Shown here: one piece after another, positions 1,226 to 52,952 of the stretch
How positions within the stretch are numbered: position 1 is the first letter of the stretch
Layout: each line of letters opens with the position of its first letter
NCBI GenBank assembly: GCA_964016885.1
Contig: OZ024741.1
Span: 164,548,001 to 164,612,000, forward strand
From: Eledone cirrhosa
Taxonomy: Eukaryota
Direction: 5' to 3'
DNA: 64,000 bases
Notes under the pieces: model-generated
The model's input: the letters and a program-made list of their open reading frames with translations, nothing else
The model's database searches: none
What the model was told of the DNA's origin: nothing
Translations under genes and position numbers: made by a program

Positions 1226-1540
1226 ATCATCATCATTTTACGTCCGCTTTTTCCCTGCTTGCAAGGGTGGGATGGGAACTGATTCTGGCTTGATTTCTAC
1301 AGCTGGATGCCCTTCCTAACATCAACCTCATTTACAGTGAGTGCTGGGTGCTTTTTTTCTGTGGCGCCTACACGTCCACCTTACCAGTCCCTATCATCTC
1401 ATTTCTACAGCTGAGTAAACTGGAGCAATGTGAAATAAAGTGTCTTGCTCAAGGAAACAACACATCACCCGGTCTGAGAATTGAACTCACAACTTTTCGA
1501 TTACAAGCCCAATGCTCTAACCACTAAGCTGTGTGCCTCC
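1226..1540 (-). mobile_element. tRNA-derived SINE family 1 (tRNA head, CORE-like and Meta-like segments, RTE-like tail, (TGA)n end)
   Basis: A box (c/t)ggcttagtgg-like, B box gttcaattc, ccttgagcaagacacttt, gaagggcatccagc, 3' cggacgtaaaatgatgatg. About 10 near-identical copies in the window. Confidence 0.85.
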
Positions 1541-3427: not shown

Positions 3428-3812
3428 CTAGCTCACCATATGACCTAGACTAGTTTGCTACATGACCTGACCTAGCCTAGCTCACCACATGACTTGATCC
3501 AATTTACCATATGAGTTAGCCTAGTTTGCTACATGAACTGACCTAGCTTACCACTTGACCTGTCCTAGTTTGCTACATGGCCTGACCTAGCTTACCACTT
3601 AACCTGACCTAGTTTGCTACATGACCTGACCTAGCTTACCACTTGACCTGTCCTAGTTTTCTACATGACCTGACCTAGCTTACTACTTAACCTGACCTAG
3701 TTTGCTACATGACCTGACCTAGCTTACCACTTGACCTGATCTAGCTTACCATTTGCCCTAGTCTAGTTTGCTACATGACCTGATCTAGCTTACCCCTTGA
3801 CCAGACCTGCCT
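3428..3812. repeat. Minisatellite of about 19-21 bp units
   Basis: tgacctgacctagcttaccact and tgacctagtttgctaca units alternate. Confidence 0.9.
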
Positions 3813-5203: not shown

Positions 5204-5239
<36 letters not shown>

Positions 5240-5241
<2 letters not shown>

Positions 5242-5425
5242 GAAAAAGTATGACCCCGACAGCAGAGCCCAAGCCGTTTCGACGGCTATTTCTGAGAAAT
5301 AGCCATCGAAACGGCTTGAGCTCTGCCGTCGGGGTCATACTTTTTCCTATTACCCACTCTACTACCCTAAGTATTGAGTACTCTGGTGCGTTATGGTCCA
5401 TCTGATTCCTTACCACAATTCCTTC
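5240..5425 (+). mobile_element. TA-inserted palindromic half-hammerhead element, family A copy 1
   Basis: 109-bp palindrome 5240-5348 (axis 5294), GAAA-CGGC..GCCG-TC^GGGGTC at 5308-5336, shared tail tacccactctactaccctaagtattgagtactctggtg, TA arrays on both sides. Confidence 0.8.
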
Positions 5426-5848
5426 TATATATATATATTAATATCAATGTTTCTATTTAATTTATATATACGAAACACAAACATTAAATGAATAAAGAAC
5501 TCAGTATGCAAAATAGATTTAAATATTTTTTTTACAAAGTGACAGTTGCATTGAAATATCCCCAAATTTGGTTTTTTAAACTGTCAGTTTGAAATATTGT
5601 ATTTGATGAAAGTTTTAAGTAACTGTCACATTGTAAATGTGTGTTTGAGTGCATGTGTGTGTGGCTATTACTACTTCATATACATGTGTTCTTCAGTGGT
5701 GGTGGTGTGTATATGAGAATAACTACTATTTATAGATGGATGGCCTTTCAAATATTAACCACCTCTTTACTTGATGTTATCAGGATGGAGTTGGCCACCA
5801 GCAAGAGTGAAAGCACTTAAGTTGGAATTACTATTTCAATGCTTATAT

Positions 5849-14943: not shown

Positions 14944-16092
14944 GTGTGTTTTGTCATGGCACTAGAACTACCATTTTATAGAGTGGACCGGATGTATTTT
15001 ATTGTGGCATTAACACTAGAACTTTACAGGGATTATAGGATTACAGGGAAGACTCGGTGCATTCTATTGTGGCATCAGCACTACCTCATTCCAAGGATTA
15101 CAGTGGACAGGGTGCATTCTAGTGTGGCACCAGAACTACCACTTTATAGAGTGGAGTGGATGTATTTTATTGTGGAATCAGCACTACTTCTTTACAAGGA
15201 TTACAGGGTGGACTGGGTGCATTCTATTGTGGCACCAGAACTACCATTTTATAGAGTGGAGCGGATGTATTTTATTGTGGCATCAGCACTACCTCTTTAC
15301 AAAGATTACAGGGTGGACTGGGTGCATTCTATTGTGGCACCAGAACTACCTCTTTACAAGGATTACAGGGTGGACAGGGTGCATTTTATTGTGGCACCAG
15401 AACTACCACTTTATAGAGTGGAGCAGATGTATTTTATTGTGGCATCAGCACTACTTCTTTACAAGGATTACAGGGTGGACAGGGTGCATTCTATTGTGGC
15501 ACCAGAACTACCACTTTATAGAGTGGAGCGGATGTATTTTATTGTGGCATCAGCACTACCTCTTTACAAAGATTACAGGGTGGACAGGGTGCATTCTATT
15601 GTGGCACCAGAACTACCTCTTTATAGAGTGGAGCAGATGTATTTTATTGTGGCATCAGCACTACTTCTTTACAAAGATTACAGGGTGGACTGGGTGCATT
15701 CTATTGTGGCACCAGAACTACCACTTTACAAGGATTACAGGGTGGACTGGGTGCATTCTATTGTGGCACCAACACTACCATTTTATAGAGTGGAGCAGAT
15801 GTATTTTATTGTGGCATCAGCACTACCTCTTTACAAGGATTACAGGGTGGACAGGGTGCATTCTATTGTGGCACCAGAACTACCACTTTATAGAGTGGAG
15901 TGGATGTATTTTATTGTGGAATCAGCACTACTTCTTTACAAGGATTACAGGGTGGACAGGGTGCATTCTATTGTGGCACCAGAACTACCACTTTATAGAG
16001 TGGAGTGGATGTATTTTATTGTGGAATCAGCACTACTTCTTTACAAGGATTACAGGGTGGACAGGGTGCATTCTATTGTGGCACCAGCACTA
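14944..16092. repeat. SINE-derived minisatellite with alternating 39- and 45-bp units
   Basis: attgtggcaccagaactaccactttatagagtgga.. and ..tttacaaggattacagggtggacagggtgcattct units. Confidence 0.95.
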
Positions 16093-16528
16093 GAACCATC
16101 ATCACATGATCATGCAGACTAAAGAGTTTGTTCAAAACCTATATTCTTTTTACTAAGTAGCCAAACACTGTAACTTTTCGTCTCTCACCACATTTACTTT
16201 TAGTGTCACAGTGCAGATCTTTTGTATCATGGCATTAAAGATAAATGGGTTGAGGAATTAATTGCTGAAGACATGATGTGATAATTACCACAACACATTA
16301 TCTATTAAGTAGTAGTAAGTTGTAAGTAGTCTAGTCTATCAGTTTCATCTTGTTAAGAATGTACAACTAGTGTTCCAGTACGGTAAATAATTATAACTTC
16401 ACACATACACACACAACCACCAACTTCCACAAGCACATACACACATGCACACACACACACACACACAGTCATATACACGCACAGTCAGAAGCACACACAC
16501 ACAGTGTTATACACACAATCACACACAC

Positions 16529-16561
<33 letters not shown>

Positions 16562-16961
16562 TTGTACTACAACAGTATAGCGACCACCTTCAGAGACACA
16601 TCAATTAATCAATGAAGTCAACATTCACCTTTCGTCTCATTAGCGTCCATTCTGTTAATCTTTAACTGATATATATTTCTGATCTGGTTAGAAAAGTGAC
16701 GTTTTGTCTGGTTAGTTGATTGGATAGAGTTTAATTAGTGATGTAACCCCTACTATATAGCAGTAATATTATTGCAGTGATTTGAGGGGAATTTATTATC
16801 AAAGTTACCTGCACAACTTTCTGCTTATTGCCCCACTATGGGATAAACCCTGCTTCCTCAGCAAATAAGATGTAGCTTACCTCCCTATGACTTACACAAT
16901 AACCCCTGTCATTTACATCATTGTCTTCCCAGCTTGGTCGAGGAGACAACAAGCACCTCAG

Positions 16962-18982
16962 TGTTGTAAAGTAGTAGTGCTGGTGCCATGATAAAACACA
17001 TCTAGTCCATTTGTAAAGTAGTAGTGCTGGTGCCATGGTAAAAGGCACTTAGTCCACTTGTAAAGTAGTAGTGCTGGTGCACTGGTAAAACACATCCAGT
17101 CCAGTTGTAAAGTAGTAGTGTTGGTGCCATGGTAAAAAGCATTCAGTCCACTTGTAAAATAGTAGTGTTGGTGCATTGGTAAAACACATCCAACCCAGTT
17201 GTAAAGTAGAAGTGTTGATGTCATGGTAAAAAGCACTCAGTCCACACTATAAAATAGTAGTGTTGGTGCATTGGTAAAACACATCCAACCCAGTTGTAAA
17301 GTAGAAGTGTTGATGCCATGGTAAAAAGCACTCAGTCCACACTATAAAATAGTAGTACTGGCACCACAATAAAATGCTCTCAATACACACTATAAAATAG
17401 TAGTACTGGCACCACAATAAAATGCTCTCAATACACACTATAAAATAGTAGTACTGGCAACACAATAAAATGCTCTCAATACACACTGTAAAATAGTAGT
17501 ACTGGCACCACAATAAAATGCTCTCAATACATACTGTAAAATAGTAGTACTGGCACCACAATAAAATGCTCTCAATACATATTGTAAACTAGTAGTACTG
17601 GCACCACAATAAAATGTTCTCAATACATACTGTAAAATAGTAGTACTGGCACCACAATAAAATGTTCTCAATACATACTGTAAAATAGTAGTACTGGCAC
17701 CACAATAAAATGTTCTCAATACATACTGTAAAATAGTAGTACTGGCACCACAATAAAATGTTCTCAATACATACTGTAAAATAGTAGTACTGGCACCACA
17801 ATAAAATGTTCTCAATACATACTGTAAAATATTAGTACTGGCACCACAATAAAATGTTCTCAATACATACTGTAAAATATTAGTACTGACACCACAATAA
17901 AATGTTCTCAATACATACTGTAAAATATTAGTACTGGCACCACAATAAAATGCTCTCAATACATATTGTAAAATAGTAGTACTGGCACCACAATAAAATG
18001 CTCTCAATACATACTGTAAAATAGTAGTACTGGCACCACAATAAAATGCTCTCAATACATACTGTAAAATAGTAGTACTGGCACCACAATAAAATGTTCT
18101 CAATACATACTGTAAAATATTAGTACTGGCACCACAATAAAATGCTCTCAATACATACTGTAAAATAGTAGTACTGGCACCACAATAAAATGTTCTCAAT
18201 ACATACTGTAAAATATTAGTACTGGCACCACAATAAAATGCTCTCAATACATACTGTAAAATAGTAGTACTGGCACCACAATAAAATGTTCTCAATACAT
18301 ACTGTAAAATATTAGTACTGGCACCACAATAAAATGCTCTCAATACATACTGTAAAATAGTAGTACTGGCACCACAATAAAATGTTCTCAATACATACTG
18401 TAAAATATTAGTACTGGCACCACAATAAAATGTTCTCAATACATACTGTAAAATAGTAGTACTGGCACCACAATAAAATGTTCTCAATACATACTGTAAA
18501 ATATTAGTACTGGCACCACAATAAAATGCTCTCAATACATACTGTAAAATAGTAGTACTGGCACCACAATAAAATGTTCTCAATACATACTGTAAAATAT
18601 TAGTACTGGCACCACAATAAAATGCTCTCAATACATACTGTAAAATAGTAGTACTGGCACCACAATAAAATGTTCTCAATACATACTGTAAAATATTAGT
18701 ACTGGCACCACAATAAAATGCTCTCAATACATACTGTAAAATAGTAGTACTGGCACCACAATAAAATGTTCTCAATACATACTGTAAAATATTAGTACTG
18801 GCACCACAATAAAATGTTCTCAATACATACTGTAAAATAGTAGTACTGGCACCACAATAAAATGTTCTCAATACATACTGTAAAATATTAGTACTGGCAC
18901 CACAATAAAATGCTCTCAATACATACTGTAAAATAGTAGTACTGGCACCACAATAAAATGCTCTCAATACATACTGTAAAGT
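16962..18982. repeat. SINE-derived 39-bp minisatellite, opposite orientation
   Basis: ctgtaaaatagtagtactggcaccacaataaaatgttctcaatacata repeated about 50 times; degenerate at the left edge. Confidence 0.95.
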
Positions 18983-20705
18983 GGTTGGGATTCTCCAAGT
19001 GATTGATTACACTTAGATATTTGAAGCACAAAGGATGAATGAAGTTAATACTGCTGACAGACTTTGCTCACCAGGAGTCTTCCAGCAGTCTACAATAGTC
19101 AATCAATAAGACTAAGAAAAAAACACCACTACATCTAGTAGATACAATTGAGTATGACTCAGTACCATGTTTTTGCTAAGGATTTTAGGTGCCATTTTAG
19201 TTGTGAGCATATACAAGCAGCTTCTTGACCCCCCCCCCCTTTGATCCAGAATGTGATGGCTGGAAGGAGAGAGAACTGCACCAATAATGGGCTGGAAATT
19301 CTTTTTCGACCTTAAAAGGATGAAAGACAAAGTAGACCATGTCATGCTTTGAACTCAGAATGCAGAAGCCCAGAACAAATATCCAATACTCTAATGATTC
19401 TGCCAAATCAATAATAATTACATAAAAGAAAGAAATGAAATAGATGCGATGTGTTATGAATTTCAAGATTAAATTATTAACTGATTTTTAATTAGAAAGT
19501 TCAAAATGTGTTACATTGCAATTTTTGTCAAACTCAATGAAAATTTAATAAGCATTAATTATTGAGCAAGTTCTAAAGATGTTAGAAATCTTGAAACAAA
19601 ACAAAACAAAAATAAAATGAATTACATTTTGAGATTGATTTAGTTCAACAATGAGGGAATAATTTTGATAAATCTAAGTTTCTTGTCATAAATTTTTAAT
19701 TTTTAATTTTTTTATACACAATTGTAATAATTTGGTCAAAGCATTGCATGGGAAAATAAAGTGGAGCTCCTATTATCAATAACTTATTTTGGAGGATAAC
19801 AGTAAACCTTACATTTTTAGAGGTAAGAAACTCTCTGGAGAGCTGGACAGCAGGTCTTTAGAGAAGAAACCTCCCTCAAGCGAGTGTTTCAGCCCTTAAC
19901 TTTTTTATTTTAAATCATGTCGGGGTCACATTTGTTTTTTTGTCTTTTCGGGGTCCACAAAATAAAGTACCAGTCCAGTTTTGAGGGAAGAATTGTTCGA
20001 GTGTCAGACAAGATGACTTCTGGTATTTGATCCAGCTCTTTGAACTCAAAAGAATTCAAATCTTGATGTAGTTTGCTTTGGTGGTAGACATAATGTTTTG
20101 TCTGGTTTAAGCCTACCTTCTGATCCTGGAAGAGAGTAAGGGTGGGTGGTGGGGTGGGCATGCTATAGTGACATCAATTTTGTTGCATGTATTCAGACCT
20201 GGTCTCCACTTTGAGGATACCAACTTTCTTTTTCTTATCTACCAGACATGAGGTCCTGAAATGGACCCTCCTTACTAAAAGAGTCTAAATAAAAATGTAT
20301 TTAACATAGATGCCACTTGTCTCCCTCTCTTCTACCAATCATCATGCTCTGAAATGGGCTCTCCTGACTAAAAGAGTCTAAATAAAAATGTAGGTAACAT
20401 AGTTACAACTGGGAATAAAACAATCTGGTCAGTAAATTTGGTTTGATTGAGCACCAGTTGAAAGGAGTTTAACATATTAAGTCTATGGTAGTGACTCTTT
20501 AACAACAGATCAATACTTATACATAACAGTTAATCATCCTCATCACTATTACCATCATCAGTTTATGCCCACTTTCCACGCTGGTATGGGTTGGATGGGT
20601 TGTCTTGGTAAAGAGCCAGATGAGACAGACAAACTTCATCTTGCTCTTTATGTTCCATATTTGGCACAGTTTCTATGGCTGGATGCTCTTCTGAATGCCA
20701 ACCTC

Positions 20706-22313
20706 CTTACAGGGTATACTGGGTGCATTTTATCATGGCACTAACACTTTGCAGGGTGTACTAAGTACATTTTATCATGGCACCAACACTAACACTTTGC
20801 AGGGTGTACTGAGTACATTTTATCATGGCACCAACACTAACACTTTGCAGGATGTACTGAGTACATTTTATCATGGCACCAACACTAACACTTTGCAGGA
20901 TGTACTGAGTACATTTTATCATGGCACCAACAATAACACTTTGCAGGGTGTACTGAGTACATTTTATCATGGCACCAACAATAACACTTTGCAGGGTGTA
21001 CTGAGTACATTTTATCATGGCACCAACAATAACACTTTGCAGGGTGTACTGAGTACATTTTATCATGGCACCAACAATAACACTTTGCAGGGTGTACTAA
21101 GTACATTTTATCATGGCACCAACACTAACACTTTGCAGGGTGTACTGAGTACATTTTATCATGGCACCAACAATAACACTTTGCAGGGTGTACTGAGAAC
21201 ATTTTATCATGGCACCAACAATAACACTTTGCAGGGTGTACTGAGTACATTTTATCATGGCACCAACACTAACACTTTGCAGGGTGTACTGAGAACATTT
21301 TATCATGGCACCAACAATAACACTTTGCAGGGTGTACTGAGTACATTTTATCATGGCACCAACACTAACACTTTGCAGGGTGTACTAAGTACATTTTATC
21401 ATGGCACCAACACTAACACTTTGCAGGGTGTACTGAGTGCATTTTATCATGGCACCAACACTAACACTTTGCAGGGTGTACTGAGTACATTTTATCATGG
21501 CACCAACACAAGCACATTTTATCATGGCACCAACACTAACACTTTGAAGGGTGTACTGAGTACATTTTATCATGGCACCAACAATAACACTTTGCAGGAT
21601 GTACTGAGTACATTTTATCATGGCACCAACACTAACACTTTGCAGGGTGTACTGAGTACATTTTATCATGGCACCAACACAAGCACATTTTATCATGGCA
21701 CCAACACTAACACTTTGCAGGGTGTACTGAGTACATTTTATCATGGCACCAACAATAACACTTTGCAGGATGTACTGAGTGCATTTTATCATGGCACCAA
21801 CACTAACACTTTGCAGGGTGTACTGAGTACATTTTATCATGGCACCAACACAAGCACATTTTATCATGGCACCAACACAAGCACTTTGCAGGGTGTACTG
21901 AGTACATTTTATCATGGCACCAACACTAACACTTTGCAGGGTGTACTGAGTACATTTTATCATGGCACCAACACTAACACTTTGCAGGGTGTACTGAGTA
22001 CATTTTATCATGGCACCAACACTAACACTTTGCAGGGTGTACTGAGTACATTTTATCATGGCACCAACACTAACACTTTGCAGGGTGTACTGAGTACATT
22101 TTATCATGGCACCAACACTAACACTTTGCAGGGTGTACTGAGTACATTTTATCATGGCACCAACACTAACACTTTGCAGGGTGTACTGAGTACATTTTAT
22201 CATGGCACCAACACTAACACTTTGCAGGGTGTACTGAGTACATTTTATCATGGCACCAACACTAACACTTTGCAGGGTGTACTGAGTACATTTTATCATG
22301 GCACCAACAATAA
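20706..22313. repeat. SINE-derived 39-bp minisatellite
   Basis: aacactttgcagggtgtactgagtacattttatcatggcaccaacact repeated about 40 times, with occasional 24-bp units. Confidence 0.95.
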
Positions 22314-35433: not shown

Positions 35434-35615
35434 AAAAGATTCAGGACCCCGCCGGCTGAGCTGCAGCTGTTTTGACAGCTAGATCCGAATGTTCAGATCT
35501 AGCTGTCGAAACAGCCAGAGCTCAGCCGTCGGGGTCCTGAATCTTTTCATATATTACCCACTCTACTAACCCAAGTATTGAGTACTCTGGTGGGTATTTT
35601 ACCACACCCTATCTG
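35434..35615 (+). mobile_element. Family A copy 2
   Basis: Palindrome 35434-35547, GAAA-cagc..gccg-TC^ggggtc, same tail, TA-flanked. Confidence 0.8.
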
Positions 35616-35683
35616 ATATATATATATATATATATATATATGAATGAGAGTATTGAAGTTTGCTTGAAGCATTGTGGAATAAT

Positions 35684-37620: not shown

Positions 37621-37622
<2 letters not shown>

Positions 37623-37730
37623 GGAACAAGTAAGACCCCGACGGCTGAGCTCAAGCCGTTTCGACGACTAATTCTGGACTGAATTAGCCGTCGAAATGGC
37701 TTGAGCTCAGCCGTCGGGGTCTTACTGGTT

Positions 37731-37734
<4 letters not shown>
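37621..37734. mobile_element. Family A copy 3, tail-less palindrome
   Basis: 114-bp palindrome with a 6-nt unpaired loop (tggact). Both arms end at cctat inside a TA array. Confidence 0.8.
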
Positions 37735-37788
<54 letters not shown>

Positions 37789-37789
<1 letters not shown>

Positions 37790-37933
37790 CAAAGAAGGTG
37801 TGGTAAGATACCAGTTGGACCATAATGCATGCACCAGAGTACTCGATACTTAGGGTAGTAGAGTGGGTAATAGGAAAAGTTTGGATCTAGCTGTCGAAAC
37901 GGCTCTGCCGTCGGGGTCCTGACTATTTTCCTA
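37789..37933 (-). mobile_element. Family A copy 4, tail-proximal arm largely missing
   Basis: Reverse-complemented tail, then taggaaaa joined to gtttggatctagctgtcGAAAcggctctgccgTCggggtc...ttttccta. Confidence 0.75.
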
Positions 37934-39101
37934 TATATATGACAGAGAGGGAGAGAGAGATTTTCAGTTCGAGTCCTGGCATGCATTGTGTCCTTGAGCA
38001 ACCACAGTATTTCACATTGCTCCAGTCCATTCAGTTTGCAAAAATTCAAAAAGCCATCATTGTCACACTAAGAACGTTAAGGGTACACATGCCTGTGGAA
38101 TATTCAGCCATCTATCTGCATATGAGCACATTGTTCAGTTAGTTGATGAAATCAACTGGAATACTCCTCGTTGGAACCAATGGTGGTCCAAAATGTGTGT
38201 GTGTTTGTCTGAGTGTATAATAATAATAATAATAATTGTTTCTACTTTTGGCACAAGGCCAAAAGTATCTCAGCGCATTACTGGTACTTTATTTTATCGA
38301 CCCTGTTTGGATGAAAGGCAAAGTTAATCTCTGCAGGATTTGAACTCAGACCATAAGGGCCGTAACTCCTTGCTGCAAAGCATGGCGTCTGACCTTCTAC
38401 CGATACAGTCAATCCACCGCCCTATTATAATAATAATAATAATAAAAATAATGATAATTATTGTGTACAGTGCCCAGGTGCACTACAAATCATCAAAGGT
38501 TCATGTATAGTACATAGAATAATGTACAAATGTCAGAAAAGTGGACAGTGTATGTGTCATGATATACACACAGATACAAATAGCATTATTTTATTTATGT
38601 CTGCTTTCCTTATCAGCATAGGTTGGATGAGTTGTCAAGATCTGAATCAGTTCTTATTTGTTGTTTGGAGAAGCCTCTCCTCCCATTTTGATGGGCTGCA
38701 GGATCATGTTCCATTTTCAACATGGTTTCTACAGCATGATATTCTTCCAAACACAAACCACTTTACATCATATACTTAGTGCATTTTATTGTGGCAGCAG
38801 CACTAGAGCCATAGTCATATCCTTGGCAAGACTATCAAGTTCTTTCAACTATGTATATGTGTGTGTATATGTATGTATATGTATGTATATATATCATCAT
38901 CACTGTTTAGCGTCCAGTTTTCCATACTTGTGTGGGAAAGACGGGTTGTCTACGTCGAGAGACAAGTATGGCTAGAGTTGGCCACGTAGTACCTTGCTCT
39001 GATGAGGACTGTGAATTTGGCTGGGTATTTTACAGTCGGATGCCCTTCCTAACACCAACTACATTTCCAGTATGGAACATATATATATATATATATATAT
39101 A

Positions 39102-52759: not shown

Positions 52760-52797
<38 letters not shown>

Positions 52798-52799
<2 letters not shown>

Positions 52800-52947
52800 C
52801 GAAGGAAATGTGGTAAGGAACCAGGTGGACCATAACGCACCAAAGTACTCAATACTTGAGGTAGTAGAGTGGGTAATAGGAACCAGTAAGACCCCGAGAA
52901 TTAGCCGTCGAAACGGCTTGAGCTCAGCTGTCGGGGTCTTACTGGTT

Positions 52948-52952
<5 letters not shown>
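52798..52952 (-). mobile_element. Family A copy 5, tail-proximal arm truncated
   Basis: Reverse-complemented tail, ataggaaccagtaagacccc, then gagaattagccgtcGAAAcggc..gctgTCggggtcttactggttcctat, TA-flanked. Confidence 0.8.

Follow-up and report, generated by a model that had tools for sequence, protein, structure and literature searches.

The window analysed here, a stretch of 64,000 nucleotides of the Eledone cirrhosa assembly GCA_964016885.1 (contig OZ024741.1, positions 164,548,001 to 164,612,000 of the forward strand), holds five copies of a short sequence, Family A, in which the 3' half of a hammerhead ribozyme stands next to inverted sequence. An initial annotation, made from the letters alone, had placed these copies at positions 5240, 35434, 37621, 37789 and 52798, each with the block GAAA-helix III-GUC^GGGGUC, and had noted that the catalytic 5' half is absent from all of them. 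Both observations are borne out. The locus thus raises the question of what kind of element leaves behind half a ribozyme together with an inverted copy. We consider it likely that an intact Penelope-like element (PLE) with Hydra-type motifs gave rise to the hairpins as short two-armed insertions, in which one RNA was probably copied twice at a nicked (TA)n target and the copies were probably cut short by run-off at a predicted transcription start in loop II of the hammerhead.

Family A copies in the window

The positions of the five copies and their parts are given in Table 1. Inverted sequence upstream of helix II had been reported for every copy; a full hairpin is present in three of the five, but the copies at 37789 and 52798 retain just ~10 and 21 nt of the tailed arm. 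The arms were also said to match within each copy, which holds for ggaaaaagtat, aaaagattcag and ggaaccagtaa in the copies at 5240, 35434 and 52798, whereas the copy at 37621 has one mismatch. Arm types do differ between copies as described, but they are subfamily marks common to many unlinked copies: one type occurs in all 30 top loci of a genome search, and one type was found 42 times among 114 arms elsewhere.

Table 1. Family A copies in the window and their parts (sites A and B are the two outer ends described under Layout of the insertions; +1 is defined under The common inner stop)
Feature	Position	Strand	Remarks
(TA)16 target microsatellite	5207..5238		left flank of copy 1
Copy 1, tail-less arm	5240..5294	-	starts at site A (parent unit position 3542, CCTAT); ends ~+5 from the putative transcription start
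Copy 1, tailed arm	5295..5349	+	helix II 3' strand, GAAA (5308), helix III, helix I 3' strand
Copy 1, GUC	5328-5330	+	predicted cut site of the parent ribozyme, within the tailed arm
Copy 1, tail	5350..5426	+	~77 nt from the beginning of the parent unit, where the 5' UTR starts; ends at site B, adjoins (TA)n
Copy 2	35434..35616	+	older subfamily 2 (helix II CAGCTA/TAGCTG type); arm junction 35490-35491; degenerate tail from 35554
Copy 3	37621..37734	none	two arms (to ~-4 and +7), without tail; exception to the one-tail rule
Copy 4	37787..37935	-	subfamily 2; tail at left, 37787-37870; ~10-nt tailed arm
Copy 4, tail-less arm	37882-37935		helix III shortened
Copy 5	52797..52951	-	youngest subfamily; tail at left, 52797-52876; 21-nt tailed arm 52877-52897; tail-less arm 52897-52951

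Copy 5 is 98.8-100% identical to the intact parent unit described below. No part of the PLE open reading frame (ORF) was found within the 64,000-nt window, an Rfam scan of the same 64 kb at the gathering threshold gave no hammerhead match, and a search for the empty site of copy 5 among DNA contigs returned no contig spanning the site.

Copies often lie back to back with (TA)n alone between them, at window positions 37621-37935 as well as at loci L286, L339, L363 and L367, and look as if earlier insertion sites had been re-targeted. The window also contains a weak tRNA-like Rfam match (1474-1530, minus strand, 30.2 bits) that is probably the head of a SINE, several related 47-48-bp minisatellite arrays of at most 34 copies (14957-22313), and 200 N.

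The parent element and its abundance

The route to the parent led through 30 tail-anchored loci, two of which extend upstream into the 5' half of the hammerhead; one contained a GIY-YIG C-terminus. The parent is an intact 3,542-bp PLE unit, read from a tandem array. Its ORF begins at nt 172 and encodes 717 aa with a reverse transcriptase (RT) and a GIY-YIG domain. The first ~80 nt of the unit are the tail of Family A, and a 1.2-kb 3' UTR ends with the hammerhead. Motifs in the ORF are RWR (residue 37), DKT (117), YRDD, CNCPDRSIC (572, CxCx5C), YIGLT, CNLC (670, CxxC) and CKH (698, CxH). A protein search found many intact reading frames. A Pfam scan of the 717-aa ORF returned no families; there are 2,063 homologues, the top ones being 38-54% identical and nearly all unnamed.

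The element combines the single RT and GIY-YIG ORF of an EN+ PLE with partial tandems (pLTR), an inverted 5'-truncated copy and a one-sided tail. The Hydra-clade DKT, the CxCx5C linker, and the CxxC and CxH around conserved E and N are all present, and the position of the clade's RWK is taken by RWR, a conservative variant whose place corresponds to that of the motif in Hydra-1_Obim. TA-type flanks occur at nearly all outer ends, matching the (TA)n insertion of that clade, while the 3,542-bp unit exceeds the usual <3 kb, a descriptive trait. The parent is best matched to a PLE with Hydra-clade motifs, a placement made from motifs and comparison by eye.

Family A consists of stubs of an autonomous PLE, a point absent from the initial annotation. 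That annotation had correctly read the 3' half as a hammerhead remnant, and a hammerhead-complete relative exists; its own counter-scenario, a hairpin MITE lacking any such relative, falls with this relative and with the RT-encoding parent. The search it had proposed for GACCCC-CTGANGA parents misses the true one, since the parent core reads UUGANAA (in full ACCCC-UUGANAA): the pattern gave 115 matches versus 138 in the control, and none of 30 inspected matches was a parent. Neither is the missing 5' half a special trait of these copies. Its loss is the genome-wide norm (~8,400 core versus ~69,000 3'-half matches), and five core-less copies out of five are to be expected because genome-wide the core is present in only about one in eight arms.

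Exact patterns detected at least 44,700 tails in the 3.0-Gb genome (reversed control 0) and 63,186 and 6,128 3' halves for two subfamily groups (reversed controls 0). For the family overall, controls with reversed patterns gave 0-4 matches, so that the counts are far above chance. Mirror-image insertions of the parent number at least 44,000, and the window hairpins are the shortest of them, ~110-190 bp. Short copies bear the same subfamily marks as long copies.

Several other repeats were seen. A GIY-YIG fragment of a different PLE type lies beside a Family A insertion (L134, 117-638, minus strand), and L326 carries ~43-bp units, arranged in tandem, that stem from the tail. In L171 (9171-10000; G000:C1, ~91.489 Mb), where a multi-unit tandem array has its inner end, some ~55 bp of the ORF (unit 1695-1752) recur at least 15 times in head-to-tail order, which looks like repeated realignment of the RT on one template stretch. 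A separate repeat family with GACCCCCTGATGACG (L034, L044, L049, L050, L054) is unrelated to Family A.

The hammerhead of the parent

The parent hammerhead reads ACCCC-UUGANAA-G..helix II..C-GAAA-helix III-UC^GGGGU. Genome-wide, 8,248 cores have A8 and 114 have G8, N7 being free; the idea that TTGACAA is a decayed CTGACGA was dropped, as A8 proved the rule. The first 100 of the 8,248 cores comprise 76 with a U3-A8 pair and 24 with a C3-A8 mismatch. When 16 long copies were fitted to helices I-III of a type I hammerhead, 96.9% of the cells were paired versus 24-53% in slid controls, in a test that leans favourable because the structure was drawn from the same sequences; two helix pairs show compensatory change. 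Rfam hammerhead models gave no match in two long copies at E values up to 10. Folding of three long copies, one of them slightly short, against shuffles gave z-scores of -2.6, 0.56 and -0.03, one of the three being MFE-like. From its sequence, the parent ribozyme is predicted to cleave itself at GUC. Members of the C3-A8 subfamily (L106, L115, L202 and others) still gave long two-armed copies, and cleavage may thus not be needed for insertion.

Layout of the insertions

Insertions consist of two head-to-head arms. Palindromes that start at 318 bp and grow continuously into arrays of several units all share their two outer ends. One end lies after CCTAT (site A) and the other after CGTTAT (site B), ~80 nt downstream of site A. 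At each of them TAT stands against (TA)n, as the initial annotation had anticipated when it proposed microhomology of the outer ends to (TA)n.

One arm, and only one, carries the tail. Exactly one tail was counted in 93 of 93 parsed short copies and in 18 of 18 long two-armed insertions drawn from 20 loci. The short-copy count is made up of 14 out of 14 copies found via the ribozyme half and 79 out of 79 others with both ends parsed, the latter being blind to zero tails because they are mostly tail-anchored. Exceptions seen elsewhere are the tail-less copy at window position 37621 and two loci with two tails (L134 and L213). Among 97 tail matches taken in order of position, 67 belong to short two-armed copies, 11 to copies joined inside the tail, 9 to copies with one arm only and 5 to copies with a long tailed arm, while 5 were unparsed.

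An unusual arrangement occurs at L193 (496-1314), where a long inverted arm without the ribozyme 3' half has its outer end near +1, abutting (TA)n, and is partnered by a tailed arm that starts at +1.

The common inner stop

Short arms share an inner stop. If the A of TT(A)GTCC in hammerhead loop II is numbered +1, 51 of the 67 short copies have their furthest arm end in the interval from -4 to +5, and in only 3 of the 67 does it go beyond -4; these positions were taken from local alignment and overshoot slightly. The diverged subfamily 2 has the same stop at TTAGTTC, as judged by eye. The bases at this wall, TTAGT or TCAGT, fit what we take to be the initiator (Inr) consensus. Where arms pass +1 a second time, none of 33 (13 and 20 from two locus sets) stops within 5 nt, and none of 38 inner ends of long arms lies at the wall.

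These counts bear on an unlikely variant of our reading, in which both strands are primed but the wall is a polymerase stop, caused by ribozyme structure or a protein footprint, or the result of later palindrome collapse, and not an RNA 5' end. A structural stop would suit a wall that lies inside the hammerhead and is several bases wide, and the many arms that end short of it. It would be expected to act on second passes and on long arms too, where no stop was found; moreover, arms of ~60 and ~140 nt end at one coordinate, which lies past the helix II 3' strand and not at the base of the helix. Long inverted repeats are unstable, which would lend itself to collapse, but the product of deletion between the helix II repeats, with the whole of loop II kept, is unseen among the short copies examined.

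Under the reading that we favour, run-off at the end of an RNA, the bases next to +1 might preserve traces of that end. In the first 50 of 3,660 both-arm loci (100 arms, counted by hand), the base before +1 is T in 61, C in 13, G in 21 and A in 5; the arm pairs of these loci include 27 T/T, 6 G/G and 1 T/G. Since the 61 arms run on into T, often to -3 or -4 or with extra A's, the wall is a few bases wide. The corresponding base in 91 long arms, from overlapping loci that were partly de-duplicated, is T in 82 and C in 9 (p 0.0025 for the contrast with the 100 arms). In six loci with inserts of 1-2 nt both arms share the counted bases (16 versus 3 without them), and several junction inserts read CAG or CAGA and could be slippage copies of +5..+8. 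The extra G before +1 may be a copied cap, a suggestion made from the base counts that we regard as about evenly balanced because CAG-type slippage could explain several of the cases.

A further stop, at the ribozyme cut site (+41 to +43), was considered but is not established: of 24 tailed-arm ends that fall in the stretch from +10 to +50, ~5 form a weak cluster there, for which microhomology offers an explanation.

Kinship of the arms

The initial annotation had predicted that arms should group within copies and had suggested either that the inversion is regenerated at each insertion or that arms are homogenised; the grouping and the first of these two suggestions are supported. Of the 57 short copies in which both arms could be parsed, 47 have one and the same diagnostic 9-mer on the two arms, compared with a mean of 11.3 and a maximum of 21 after shuffling, and two different common arm types are paired in 3 of the 57. 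In the young subfamily, an arm has its partner as nearest relative in 22 of 25 long insertions when ties are included and in 16 without ties, and so the inversion is remade at each insertion. The kinship means that both arms derive from one RNA or one source element; gene conversion between arms may be partly behind it.

Which arm reaches further varies from copy to copy: it is the tail-less arm in 28 of the 67 short copies and the tailed arm in 23, with 16 ties, and at L178, L182 and L186 neither arm is wholly contained in its partner. Since the longer arm may be the tailed or the tail-less one, loops occur in both orientations. Snap-back at helix II, a candidate source of the inversion, was dropped for the same reason.

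The unequal arms also make it improbable that one cDNA folds back and primes itself, with the inverted arm arising from second-strand synthesis, as Arkhipova 2013 (PMC3846280) proposes for self-priming on an antisense template in a rotifer Penelope. Folding back would account directly for the kinship of the arms, and in many copies a short perfect palindrome such as AAATTT forms the centre. However, in the 28 short copies just mentioned the tail-less arm has bases missing from the tailed arm, which has the tail, and at L178, over hundreds of bases, neither arm includes the other. One cDNA could not template both unless later deletion were common even in young copies that are 99-100% identical.

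It is very improbable, and largely refuted, that the 186-bp hairpin and tail form a non-autonomous unit of their own (MITE- or SINE-like), replicated in its entirety from a small number of master copies, as the very high copy number and narrow modal size might suggest, since the centres vary among copies and can face either way with respect to the tail, sizes are continuous into full PLEs with subfamily marks common to short and long copies, and the parent encodes RT-GIY-YIG and not a transposase. Two class assignments were rejected as well, that of a MITE because one end has an unpaired ~80-nt tail and the parent is an RT element, and that of a non-LTR retrozyme (in which non-coding units stand in tandem and every unit contains a complete hammerhead) because short copies are dispersed and without the 5' core.

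Proposed mechanism

We return to the copying of one RNA from both strands of the target. The endonuclease would nick both (TA)n strands, and the 3' ends would anneal to the TAT of a single RNA and be extended, site A (after CCTAT) serving one nick for priming and site B (after CGTTAT) serving the other. The stretch between A and B would then appear as the one-sided tail. The two cDNA 3' ends would be joined head to head, often via microhomology. A capped RNA that starts at the A of TT(A)GTCC, inside loop II, would by construction lack the ribozyme 5' core, and its run-off cDNAs of ~60 and ~140 nt would make up Family A. Long arms (~1 in 8) and tandem arrays would stem from array read-through or from a ribozyme-made circular RNA, in which there is no end at this point.

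We advance more tentatively, as falling just short of an even chance, the general statement that this PLE always primes both (TA)n strands on one RNA at two fixed sites, that its promoter fires within the hammerhead, whereby the capped mRNA gives only ~190-bp stubs, and that full and tandem copies come from read-through or a 3.5-kb circle. If true, about nine in ten insertions would be genomic prints of a transcription start and its cap.

The family offers tens of thousands of natural insertion products together with intact parents. Its one-tail pairing, arm kinship and template-end wall turn the two-strand, two-start result obtained in vitro with another PLE (see below) into specific predictions, namely that a start can be mapped within the ribozyme, that there are two classes of RNA and that both arms have the same template. 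The mechanism would also explain a dense class of small genomic hairpins that are otherwise filed as MITEs or broken ribozymes.

Comparison with known systems

The comparisons below draw on the accessible parts of the cited papers. Craig et al. 2021 (PMC8557442) report for PLEs generally that copies may be inverted and 5'-truncated and that the tail is one-sided, and they state that the way in which PLEs make tandem, inverted and tailed insertions is unresolved. With the Hydra clade as described there, the parent shares the C-terminal GIY-YIG, DKT, CxCx5C, CxxC/CxH, (TA)n insertion and a hammerhead at the 3' end, and the N-terminal 400 aa of the present ORF look homologous to Hydra-1_Obim by eye. 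It differs in size (3,542 bp with a 1.2-kb 3' UTR, versus 2,507 bp in Hydra-1_Obim and generally <3 kb in the clade), in having RWR, a U3-A8 core and a long helix II and loop II where the clade has RWK and the canonical CTGAAGAG, and in its tail, which is ~80 nt long with at least 44,700 tails, compared with 30-40 in the clade (PMC8557442).

The closest experimental system is Poseidon of Anolis (PAc), for which Frangieh 2024 (PMC11167929) reports that in vitro both strands are nicked and extended, that two RT start sites bound the tail, and that ribozyme cleavage is dispensable for insertion. PAc belongs to another PLE clade and supplies the both-strand extension and the two start sites of the present model. 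There is a tension, in that PAc starts without target homology, whereas both starts here end in TAT and show this homology at both ends of the insertion. The accessible account of PAc does not link one start to each strand, and contains neither arms from the same RNA nor run-off at a transcription start (PMC11167929). An internal TATA-less promoter with an Inr is described for the D. virilis Penelope (Schostak 2008, PMC2377424).

As regards the ribozyme, U3-A8 is a described covariation of PLE hammerheads, and a ribozyme-made circular RNA was proposed in the same work (Cervera and de la Pena 2014, PMC4209133). The hammerheads of the Schistosoma PLE Cercyon likewise have U3-A8, a long helix II and a palindromic loop III, and their motifs occur in opposite-strand pairs 100-700 bp apart that were ascribed, as here, to truncated PLEs. 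Unlike in Cercyon, helix III has its full 5 bp here, and the opposite-strand pairs could be traced to two-armed insertions with fixed ends (PMC4209133). Metazoan non-LTR retrozymes (Li et al. 2026, 10.64898/2026.07.22.740005) resemble Family A in being small, PLE-related repeats that bear a hammerhead; in contrast to them, Family A is not tandem, has no complete ribozyme and consists of pieces of an autonomous element.

A literature search, conducted mostly without subscription papers and Repbase, found no account of the present family, of the one-tail rule or of run-off at a start site. While the element class and the inverted-plus-tail layout were already known, the present analysis contributes the autonomous parent and the probable run-off wall.
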